Assembly (NCBI GenBank): GCA_902563075.1
Contig: CACEWC010000003.1
Location: 1,324 to 65,323, forward strand
Source: an uncultured Pelagibacteraceae bacterium
GTDB lineage: Bacteria; Pseudomonadota; Alphaproteobacteria; Pelagibacterales; Pelagibacteraceae
Reading direction: 5' to 3'
Length of the DNA: 64,000 nt
The translations under genes were made by a program, and so were the position numbers. The notes below the pieces were generated by a model that saw nothing but the letters and a program-made list of their open reading frames with translations, was not told the DNA's origin and did not search any database. Below, in pieces: positions 27,906-61,555 of the stretch. Positions within the stretch are counted from its first letter, which is position 1. Every line of letters begins with the position of its first letter.

Positions 27906-27997
27906 GGAAGAGTGGGTGAGAGGCTGAAACCAGTCGTTTGCTAAATGACCGTGCGAGGAAACTTGTACCGAGGGTTCGAATCCCTCCTCTTCCGCCA
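27906..27997 (+). tRNA. tRNA-Ser(GCT), CCA encoded
   Basis: Acceptor GGAAGAG/CTCTTCC then GCCA; anticodon arm GTCGT-TTGCTAA-ATGAC; long variable arm; GAGGGTTCGAATCCCTC T-arm. Confidence 0.97.
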
Positions 27998-53863: not shown

Positions 53864-53867
53864 TTTA

Positions 53868-53923
53868 CTCCTTTTTTAGTGCTTTAGCTTTATGCTAGGC
53901 GCACAATATAGTTCAAATGCCTA
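53868..53923 (-). promoter_or_regulatory. SAM-V riboswitch abutting the metY Shine-Dalgarno sequence
   Basis: Minus strand UAGGCAUUUGAACUAUAUUGUGCGCCUAG...AAAGCACUAAAAAAGGAG resembles the SAM-V consensus; ends at the GGAG upstream of the metY ATG. Confidence 0.88.
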
Positions 53924-53941
53924 CCGATTTTGTATGATGGT

Positions 53942-59233: not shown

Positions 59234-59254
59234 ACCATCCATTAGAACCTTTAA

Positions 59255-59276
59255 TAACGAGTTATATAACTCGTTA
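59255..59276. repeat. Perfect 22-bp palindrome TAACGAGTTATATAACTCGTTA
   Basis: Sequence equals its own reverse complement; begins 22 nt after the DMT stop codon. Confidence 0.9.
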
Positions 59277-59751
59277 ATATGCTATTTTATTGTTAGCCCA
59301 TTTTATCAATACTCAAAAATATAATGATGTATATAGGTAATGTTTATTTACTAATATATAAAGTATTACTTTAAGTTATATTTGTAAATTATTGTAATTA
59401 TTGAATTAATTAAATTTTATAAATATTGAAAATTTATGAAATTTTAGCATATTAGCTGTAAAGAGAGATCACTTAAACTCATGAAATTTGTTACTAGAGT
59501 AAGAAAATCAAATAATCGTTTAAAATACCGACTTTTGGAGCTGCTTAATAATTAAAATTGCCTAAAAATAGGGTAGTCTAAAACCATTGATATTGTTGAA
59601 TAGTAGAGCGATGCACTAATTGAATATACCTTTTAAACGCCCATAGGAGGGTCATTTTTTAGTGAAGGCTCATATACGGTACAACTGAAGGGTGAATTAA
59701 GTTATTTTGATTATTCAAGGTTCAAATCATTAAAAAACGCTGATTTTACTA

Positions 59752-59772
59752 GCTTTTTTATAGCAAAAAAGC
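59752..59772. terminator. Weak hairpin GCTTTTTT-ATAGC-AAAAAAGC just downstream of ogt; possible terminator
   Basis: 8-bp inverted repeat 12 nt beyond the ogt stop; no clear U-tail. Confidence 0.35.
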
Positions 59773-59784
59773 CTTAAAATAAGA

Positions 59785-60060
59785 CTAAATAGGAGCTTTT
59801 TCAGATCTTAATAATTTTAGCTTTTTCTTGGTTCCACCTATTCCAGAGTAACCTCCAAGCCCTCCATCTGACCTAATTACTCTATGACAAGGTATTTTAG
59901 GGGCATATGGGTTTTTGGCACAGGCATTAGCTACAGCTCTAGCTGATTTAGGGCTTTTTATGCCAATAGCCACCTGTTTATAGGTTTTTACCTCACCTTT
60001 TTGAATGGTTTTGAGATATTTCCAAACTTTTAATTGAAATTTTGTGCCTTTAAGTTTCAT
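59785..60060 (-). CDS. ogt: Minimal O6-methylguanine-DNA methyltransferase (C-terminal domain only)
   Basis: GTKFQLKVW, GEVKTY, ARAVANAC..NP, active-site IPCHRVI, LGGYSG. Confidence 0.92.
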   Translation of the reverse strand: MKLKGTKFQLKVWKYLKTIQKGEVKTYKQVAIGIKSPKSARAVANACAKNPYAPKIPCHRVIRSDGGLGGYSGIGGTKKKLKLLRSEKAPI

Positions 60061-60069
60061 TATTGGCTA

Positions 60070-60251
60070 AAAACCCCTGTTTCCTTGCACTTTTAAGGGT
60101 GCAAAGAACAGTTGTTTTGGCACGTCGTTGATGCGCTACCGCCATGCCTCCCGCTCCACATGTTCAGCGATGCTTTGTGAAGCTTTCTGCCCCCTGGAAT
60201 TGTACCTCTCGGCTTTTCTCCAATTGGCCAGTTAAGAGTTGCCCCTTAATT
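60070..60251 (-). ncRNA. Multi-hairpin structured RNA directly upstream of ogt, family not assigned
   Basis: GC-enriched island with five consecutive stems, two GNRA tetraloops (GCAA, GAGA) and G-U pairs that work only on the minus strand. Confidence 0.78.
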
Positions 60252-60344
60252 CATATTTAGCTTATCAAATACAGATTTTTAAATGTATCACTTTTTAGGT
60301 GATTTTGTTATTTTTCTCATTTCCTTGTGAACAGTGGGGATAAA

Positions 60345-60521
60345 TCAAGCTTTAAAAAGTAATACAAAATAGCTTAAGAAAAATAAAACAGCCATTATGC
60401 TTAAAAAAATAGTATTAATACTTTTCCCAGTGTTTTTATATTGAATTAAACTTAAAATAATAAAACCAATTGAGCTGATCAAAAACCATACTGCCGGAAT
60501 TTCTCCATCAATTGAACCCAT
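60345..60521 (-). CDS. Small membrane protein, 58 aa, two hydrophobic segments (not in ORF track)
   Basis: MGSIDGEIPAVWFLISSIGFIILSLIQYKNTGKSINTIFLSIMAVLFFLSYFVLLFKA; fills the gap divergent from the recombinase. Confidence 0.55.
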   Translation of the reverse strand: MGSIDGEIPAVWFLISSIGFIILSLIQYKNTGKSINTIFLSIMAVLFFLSYFVLLFKA

Positions 60522-60563: not shown

Positions 60564-60598
60564 ATTACTAATGATAATTAATTGTTATCAATAGTAAT
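60564..60598. other. lox-like putative recombination site, 14-7-14 inverted repeat
   Basis: ATTACTAATGATAA-TTAATTG-TTATCAATAGTAAT; arms match 13/14; ends 3 nt before the recombinase ATG. Confidence 0.75.
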
Positions 60599-60601
60599 CA
60601 T

Positions 60602-61555
60602 ATGAATGAACTGACAACAGACTTAAAATCGCTTCATGAGGCAACATTAAATAACCTCAAAAGCTCTAAAGCAAATAATACTCTTAGAGCTTATAAGTCG
60701 GACTTCAAAGACTTTGGAGCTTTTTGCGCAAAACATGGATTAAATTCATTGCCAACAGAGCCGAAAATAGTTTCCTTGTACCTTACCCATCTCTCTAAAA
60801 ACTCAAAAATAAGCACTTTAAGACGAAGGTTGGTTTCAATAAGTATGGTTCATAGGCTGAAAGGGCATTATCTAGACACTAAACATCCAATCATAGTTGA
60901 AAATTTAATGGGAATAAGAAGGGTTAAAGGTAGCATTCAGAAAGGTAAAAAACCTATATTAATCAATCATTTAAAATTAATTATTAATGTAATAAATGAA
61001 CAAAAAACTGAGGAAATAAAAAAACTTAGAGATAAATCGTTAATCTTAATTGGCTTTGGAGGTGGTTTTAGAAGAACTGAGCTTATTTCAATAGACCATG
61101 AGGATTTGGAATTTGTTCCTGAGGGTCTAAAAATCACTATTAAAAGATCAAAAACTGATCAATTTGGAGAAGGAATGACTAAAGGACTACCCTACTTCGA
61201 TAATGAAATTTACTGTCCTGTTACAAATCTAAAAAAATGGTTAGAAATTTCAAGAATTAAGTCTGGACCTATTTTTAGAAGATTTTCTAAAGGTTTATCA
61301 TTAACAGATAAAAGATTAACTGATCAAACTGTAGTTTTATTAATGAAACACTATTTAAATATAGCAGGTATCGAAAACAAAAATTTTGCAGGTCATAGTT
61401 TAAGATCGGGTTTTGCAACAGTAGCTGCTGATTCAGGTGCTGATGAGAGAAGCATAATGGCTATGACAGGTCACAAAACAACTCAAATGGTTAGAAGATA
61501 TATTAGAGAGGCAAATATATTTAAAAATAATGCATTAAACAAAATTAAGATATAA
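60602..61555 (+). CDS. Cre-like tyrosine recombinase
   Basis: NTLRAYKSD, STLRRRL.SI, LRDKSLIL.GF.GGFRRTEL (R), RSKTDQFGEG (K), YCPV, GHSLRSGFAT (HxxR), TGHK (H), VRRY (Y); full catalytic set. Confidence 0.92.
   Translation: MNELTTDLKSLHEATLNNLKSSKANNTLRAYKSDFKDFGAFCAKHGLNSLPTEPKIVSLYLTHLSKNSKISTLRRRLVSISMVHRLKGHYLDTKHPIIVENLMGIRRVKGSIQKGKKPILINHLKLIINVINEQKTEEIKKLRDKSLILIGFGGGFRRTELISIDHEDLEFVPEGLKITIKRSKTDQFGEGMTKGLPYFDNEIYCPVTNLKKWLEISRIKSGPIFRRFSKGLSLTDKRLTDQTVVLLMKHYLNIAGIENKNFAGHSLRSGFATVAADSGADERSIMAMTGHKTTQMVRRYIREANIFKNNALNKIKI

Follow-up and report, generated by a model that had tools for sequence, protein, structure and literature searches.

The 64,000-nt stretch of Pelagibacteraceae DNA analysed here (the window) carries on its minus strand an RNA that is, with near certainty, a complete copy of IMES-2 (Rfam RF02035), and we hold with very high confidence that IMES-2 is a stand-alone RNA gene rather than a switch for the neighbouring alkyltransferase gene, ogt. 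The RNA forms four covarying helices, is patchily present within one bacterial family, and is independent of ogt. As an element IMES-2 is already catalogued and not new. Its description in 2009 is said to be that of Weinberg et al. (Nature 462:656) and Shi et al. (Nature 459:266), in which it reportedly was very abundant in ocean RNA, outnumbered ribosomes in Pacific samples and was left without an assigned function.

Identity and fold of the RNA

A cmscan of the whole 64-kb window gave three matches at gathering score, among them IMES-2 at 60117..60256 (-), which is matched at full length (model positions 1-141; 143.6 bits against a gathering score of 54.7, E 2.9e-37). One copy is present in the assembly, which is 67% complete. 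The window copy shares with RF02035 the same four hairpins (H1 to H4), the full extent of the model and a marine SAR11 host, but the model ends before a fifth hairpin (H5) and its U-run, which lie beyond it downstream, the promoter is outside it, and the cmscan print displays no pseudoknot. The original prediction of a stable non-coding RNA, perhaps catalogued among the IMES motifs, was borne out by this search, which it had itself proposed. It had also held that a confident hit to a functionally characterised Rfam family would remove the novelty; the Rfam match is indeed confident, whereas no described function was found in a literature search on the IMES names and RF02035. In the parts of these sources that were available, the only mention of IMES-2 in PMC6962438 is as a family from marine metagenomes, PMC13414033 credits Shi et al. 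with 66 groups of putative small RNAs, and PMC2704228 and PMC2864571 contain nothing on IMES-2. Elsewhere in the window lie a SAM-V riboswitch (53865-53931, -; 85.1 bits) and a tRNA with a long variable arm (27906-27994, +).

The minus strand at 60065-60255 (191 nt) folds at -65.2 kcal/mol (z -3.82, with 0/200 shuffles as stable), while the plus strand is unremarkable in the same test (z -0.55), and the five hairpins were found on the minus strand where they had been predicted. The further claim of a G-U pair in every stem stands in so far as every helix, when folded by itself, contains one or more; that of H1 is strain-specific, occurring in 5/90 copies at that pair. The covariation analysis called for by the prediction was made on 90 distinct copies, namely 88 of the 102 distinct cores and two added by hand, and in these homologues H1-H4 covary: 96.7% of cells are paired and 24/44 pairs show two-sided change, with 0/500 shuffles as high and slid controls at 33-40%. 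H1 (60232..60249, -) has 7 bp and a GCAA tetraloop, one pair with two-sided change and 100% of cells paired, a figure biased by the fact that most rows were found via the H1 pattern. H2 (60187..60231, -) is a long stem with an A-rich 4x4 internal loop and a GAGA tetraloop, and 9/15 of its pairs show two-sided change. Its base is formed by CUG/CAG with a CC/GG closure; in this register 11 pairs hold 93.8% of cells paired, against only 72.1% for the register first proposed (CUGG/CCAG with AAUUG/CAAUU), which was given up. All 8 pairs of the H3 stem (60153..60183, -) show two-sided change, and 99.6% of cells are paired in H4 (60119..60148, -). The inner helix GCG-GUAG-CGC that had been drawn within H4 did not survive: its pairs never change on both sides, 13 cells over the 90 rows are broken, and its loop bases pair better with loop 3; inner mini-hairpins of loops 3 and 4 were rejected altogether because two-sided change was absent. 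The invariant unpaired bases are those of the GNRA loops and the A-rich loops, which are typical of tertiary contacts, and an invariant core, CUG-CC/GGCAGAAA, lies at the H2/H3/H4 junction. A leader peptide starting from an AUG in H4 was considered and rejected: the AUG is out of frame with ogt here, is in the ogt frame in 6/22 loci, and does not occur in other lineages.

A run of 5-7 bases is complementary between loops 3 and 4, and the covariation leads us to predict, with high confidence, that loop 3 (60165-60169, CGCUG) pairs with loop 4 (60134-60138, UAGCG). In the 90-row alignment three of the six loop-loop pairs show two-sided change (10 cells; 0/500 shuffles). For a count of the loop centres diverged copies were added, of which 175/177 could be parsed: the centres are CG/CG in 165, CA/UG in 5, UA/UA in 3 and UG/CA in 2. 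All 10 copies with a changed centre are still complementary and the two central pairs are without uncompensated change; the complementarity has been kept via compensatory changes. A tree of 42 rows (the 10 changed copies and 32 drawn from the others) was built with the loop-centre bases masked, and in it the changed copies fall in four separate parts, although IMES-2 copies are mutually related and include some duplicates, so that these counts should not be read as independent events. In 18/90 rows, the window copy among them, the outer loop pair (columns 80/120) is broken, and a metagenome scan for extra loop variants returned two chance matches only. The centres are palindromic in 168/175 copies and non-palindromic in 7/175, and because of these seven a pairing of loop 3 with loop 4 is favoured over a repeated protein-binding motif. 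Covariation is blind to whether the loops pair within or between molecules, and other orphan RNAs have both intra- and intermolecular loop pairing, according to the available part of PMC12286853. A shortened IMES-2 in genome G121 (L300; G121:C1:309576-309703, -; 69.7 bits) has a tetraloop-capped H4 with no loop-4 partner, and its loop 3 is an 8-nt palindrome; this short copy is a natural test of homodimer kissing.

Promoter, transcript and 3' end

The upstream alignment reveals a conserved element, ATCAC-N7-GTGAT (60287..60303, -), of which GTGAT(A/T) recurs at -40 to -43 from H1 in 135/138 distinct upstream stretches and is preceded ten bases ahead by a C in 118/118 aligned. Downstream of it is a predicted extended -10 of the form TGnTAnnnT (TGATAAGCT; 60259..60267, -), conserved over the 118 aligned upstream stretches at T94 G92 n T98 A85 n n n T97 percent; a consensus promoter scan did not call it. 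The fixed spacing of GTGAT and TGnTAnnnT places the predicted start near 60251 (60250-60252). Some 75-90 nt upstream of this start are two abutting 9-mers (TTATCCCCA, CTGTTCACA; 60326..60343, -), which resemble the DnaA-box consensus. A match to TTWTNCACA with at most one mismatch is found in 127/132 distinct upstream stretches, compared with about 21% of shuffles, and frequently takes the form of a pair of adjoining copies that are degenerate to varying degrees. Since the upstream stretches are related, this indicates conservation and not binding; we lean slightly towards the view that DnaA acts at these predicted boxes. They accompany the RNA in the gene contexts described below with ogt, mnmA and a nuclease (genus g5), while in G121 neither they nor GTGAT are seen. 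The promoter motifs move with the RNA across contexts and are gone with it in the close relative G064. Profile scans for promoter elements of this type elsewhere found none in G064 and one in G061, at a gene end, but the scan is insensitive because it missed the diverged promoter of G061's own IMES-2.

Downstream-stretch folding places H5 and the U-run at 60069..60118 (-), with the core of the hairpin at 60077-60111, a basal extension AAAAC/GUUUU, and the U-run at 60069-60073. In 127/127 distinct downstream stretches H4 is followed by a hairpin of 15-23 pairs, with a median fold of -20.9 against -7.7 kcal/mol when shuffled, and the tail after it has at least 5 T in 8 nt in 111/127. Two main sequence types account for 90 and 23 of these stretches and other sequences for the remaining 14, several of them unrelated to one another. 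A conserved shape with a free sequence fits a terminator, and H5 with its U-run is likely to be an intrinsic terminator that may possibly double as an RNase III site; the hairpin, the pyrimidine tail and the free sequence are shared with both, the length of the stem and its internal loop would suit RNase III as well, and RNase III is present in 7/7 genomes. However, at 15-23 pairs, and with an internal loop 11-13 bp below its top, the stem is long for a terminator, and one lineage has UUCUCUUC-type tails. A simple terminator scan did not call H5.

Cover was compared in eight runs, seven of them RNA (metatranscriptome) runs, all in the form of contigs, from which neither level nor strand nor ends can be read; runs X19-X22, with almost no matching words, were left out. 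In 6/7 RNA runs the depth is centred on 60116-60247, drops over H5 and is much lower over ogt, a comparison in which a conserved RNA recruits more strains than genes do; in 6/7 the cover also stops near 60250, being zero or near zero upstream of ~60253. Run X3 has flat cover across the locus, and in X15, a run of unrecorded kind, cover runs on past both sides. Loose ends carrying adapter or poly(A) were found at 60118 (X1, X9), 60120 (X4, X11), and 60121 and 60115 (X14), in five studies. Further adapter ends lie inside H5 (60084-60100), and in one study, again as contigs alone, X14 has three contigs that end at 60070-60073. Four runs also have adapter ends at 60236-60238, which could be an artefact of the libraries and were not taken as the 5' end. 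One X2 contig spans 60014-60151 (H4-H5-ogt) with no mismatch, though one transcript is not thereby proven. These observations hint weakly at a main form trimmed to the foot of H4 (60115-60121), a long form reaching the U-run, and slight read-through. Some cover in X3 also lies at 59544-59719, within the ~550 nt that separate the EamA gene from the end of ogt (59234-59784), a stretch that has no ORF of 50 aa and is long for SAR11.

Gene neighbourhood and distribution

The ogt-like gene of the window (59785..60060, -) encodes an alkyltransferase of 91 aa with a PCHR active-site motif (Pfam PF01035, E 3.5e-30), and its start codon is 9 nt past the U-run. A census of gene context took in 142 loci, and after removal of 42 with too little downstream DNA, 100 could be scored. 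In these ogt is directly next to the RNA in 73, behind a 58-aa gene in 2 and absent in 24, and one holds a broken or chimeric copy. At the 24 loci without ogt the RNA lies behind a gene that we presume, from its SGGVDS motif, to be mnmA, and 23 of them face a convergent gene. In genus g5 the RNA is placed between a thermonuclease gene (identified by Pfam) and a convergent gene, while the shortened copy of G121 has different neighbours in a fourth context; contexts other than that with ogt are seen in G061, G069, G071 and G121, and there are at least four gene contexts overall. A constant downstream gene on the same strand, by which a riboswitch is recognised, was not found across the loci. The gene also occurs without the RNA, in 3/3 RNA-negative loci of the same genus that were examined (G024, G013 and G026) and in G064. 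The last is a complete genome with a median protein identity of 95% to the genome of the window, and it keeps ogt but is without everything from ~60345 to 60061. The unit that is gained or lost is the promoter, the RNA and H5. The absence of ogt from 24/100 loci, the other contexts and the insertions in 2/100 therefore do not support the second half of the original prediction, a cis leader of an alkylation-repair gene, and ogt is a neighbour outside the RNA gene, likely expressed via read-through.

Several other features lie close by. A hydrophobic ORF of 58 aa without a Pfam match (60345-60521, -) is upstream of the RNA in 49/142 loci and downstream in 2/142, and is present without the RNA in G024 and G064. 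At one locus (L182) IMES-2 breaks in loop 3 into recombinase coding sequence, as a rearranged copy or a single-cell chimera. An inverted repeat with 13-bp arms and a 7-bp spacer (60565-60597) lies just upstream of a gene for a 317-aa tyrosine recombinase (60602-61555, +; Pfam PF00589). The complete genome of G064 has this repeat once, at 674.7 kb, where the cumulative GC skew reaches its maximum, and repeat and recombinase are likely to be a single-recombinase dif system at the terminus.

Among relatives IMES-2 is present as a single copy in 22/61. It was found in 53/150 genomes of the order that are at least 90% complete (53/137 in family f1 and 0/13 in family f2) and is absent from the other 97/150, G064 included; a search of five RNA-negative near-complete genomes for hidden diverged copies gave none over the cut-off (best E 0.67). 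Across the class one of 150 drawn genomes has it, and that one is from the same family. The H1 pattern was found in 120 stretches in 13/64 parts of the genome collection, for an estimated ~630 overall, and 80/80 titles among the matches listed are Pelagibacterales. Allowing one mismatch in this pattern, over 212 genomes, gave many chance matches and was used solely to choose genomes. The H1 pattern had 0 matches in viral contigs, and a looser pattern gave 119 loci from 11/64 parts with no convincing profile match (best E 0.019).

Possible functions

We propose that IMES-2 would be transcribed from its own promoter, starting near 60251 and possibly tuned by DnaA, and would terminate at the U-run after H5; most molecules would be trimmed to ~135 nt at the foot of H4, and a small read-through would feed ogt. 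The RNA likely folds compactly, locked by the pairing of loops 3 and 4, and likely works in trans, its shape serving as a decoy for a core protein of the cell. We advance the decoy step, which rests on exclusion and on reported abundance, tentatively and as a reading that could well go either way. The binding partner is a guess, for which RNA polymerase would be the first candidate by analogy to 6S.

Hfq, ProQ, CsrA, Ro60 (TROVE) and 6S were each found in 0/5 genomes, with positive controls, and the marks of a CsrB-type sponge (CsrA in the host, repeated GGA loops) were not found. The polymerase-binding 6S (RF00013) and Ms1-type RNAs are abundant, free-standing and of similar size to IMES-2. 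Unlike 6S, IMES-2 has four short hairpins and kissing loops instead of one long hairpin with a central bubble, and cmscan gave no RF00013 match at its locus at gathering score. Furthermore, 6S was found in none of G095, G074, G061, G064, G013 and G000, with or without IMES-2 (the Caulobacter control was positive), and is thus missing also where IMES-2 is missing (G064, G013). A comparison of 806 proteins of the assembly showed 74 to be missing or weak in G064, of which 23 are matched in the RNA-positive G061; most of these 23, part of which were scanned against Pfam, belong to a type IV pilus cluster. This cluster (G000:C2:14-48 kb; L444, L445) includes two SpoIIE-type phosphatases, an anti-sigma-type kinase and a STAS protein and is absent from G064; its PilC is found in 76/150 genomes and is stop-broken in several. 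The cluster was rejected as a partner because PilC does not track the RNA, being present in 31/41 RNA-positive and 36/73 RNA-negative genomes of the genus, and in genus g8 in 1/9 where the RNA is in 7/9. No co-inherited RNA-binding protein was evident in three genomes, with the window assembly 67% complete, so that any partner is likely to be found among the core proteins. The 97/150 near-complete genomes without a copy, a close relative among them, suggest that the function is dispensable.

An assembly made of RNA only, in which loop 3 would pair with loop 4 of the next molecule and GNRA/A-minor contacts would build dimers or rings, is unlikely, even though the covariation fits intermolecular as well as intramolecular pairing. 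The palindromic centres of 168/175 copies speak for it, as does the G121 copy, which is without loop 4 yet has an 8-nt palindrome in loop 3; against it are the seven non-palindromic centres and the ability of two neighbouring hairpins of similar length to kiss intramolecularly. Precedents are ROOL, GOLLD and OLE, abundant orphan structured RNAs with kissing loops and A-minor contacts such as are proposed here; in the available part of PMC12286853, kissing loops first seen by covariation proved intermolecular, and ROOL is abundant yet non-essential. The raiA RNA (PMC10861870) is another RNA of this kind. IMES-2 has no sequence or Rfam relation to any of these four; it is chromosomal, was not found in viral contigs, and at ~135 nt has about one-fifth of the length of ROOL, and a multimer of it is hypothetical.

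It is distinctly unlikely that IMES-2 is an accessory defence or addiction RNA, an antitoxin or anti-phage decoy carried on a cassette that is gained and lost. Its patchiness among close relatives (53/150) and its movement as a promoter-RNA-terminator unit would agree with this, and the order of promoter, RNA, leaky terminator and small ORF is like a type III toxin-antitoxin layout. However, IMES-2 is a single unit without the tandem repeats of a type III antitoxin RNA, its downstream gene is variable with no fixed toxin, and no co-inherited gene was found; it is also single-copy, lies between core genes, and was not found in viral contigs. A regulator that base-pairs with mRNA independently of Hfq is improbable: it would have its own promoter and terminator and a discrete transcript, as here, but the sole conserved loops containing G or C covary with each other, unlike an mRNA seed, and Hfq and ProQ are each found in 0/5 genomes. 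A ribozyme or free-standing binder of a small molecule, to which the invariant CUG-CC/GGCAGAAA core at the H2/H3/H4 junction and the kissing loops might point, is very improbable, as cmscan gave no match to a ribozyme or riboswitch family at gathering score and the gene context has no link to a ligand. Finally, a cis leader or riboswitch controlling ogt through an H5 terminator or a ribosome site hidden in H5, for which the 73/100 loci with ogt directly after H5, the lack of space for an ogt promoter and the X2 contig across H4-H5-ogt could be cited, is extremely improbable and is largely refuted by gene context, that is, by the 24/100 loci without ogt (23 facing a convergent gene), the contexts of G061, G069, G071 and G121, the 58-aa gene inserted before ogt in 2/100, the H5 sequences swapped between lineages, and ogt without the RNA in G024, G013, G026 and G064.

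IMES-2 is present in about a third of the near-complete SAR11-order genomes sampled. The pair of close genomes with and without it, its unusual promoter, the covariation of loops 3 and 4, and the natural variants that swap the paired loop bases make its function easier to test. The decoy reading has a more specific form, in which a DnaA-controlled, replication-coupled RNA would assemble by kissing of loops 3 and 4 and titrate RNA polymerase or DnaA. We regard this as quite doubtful; if it is true, growth-state control of this kind would replace 6S RNA in a large share of SAR11.
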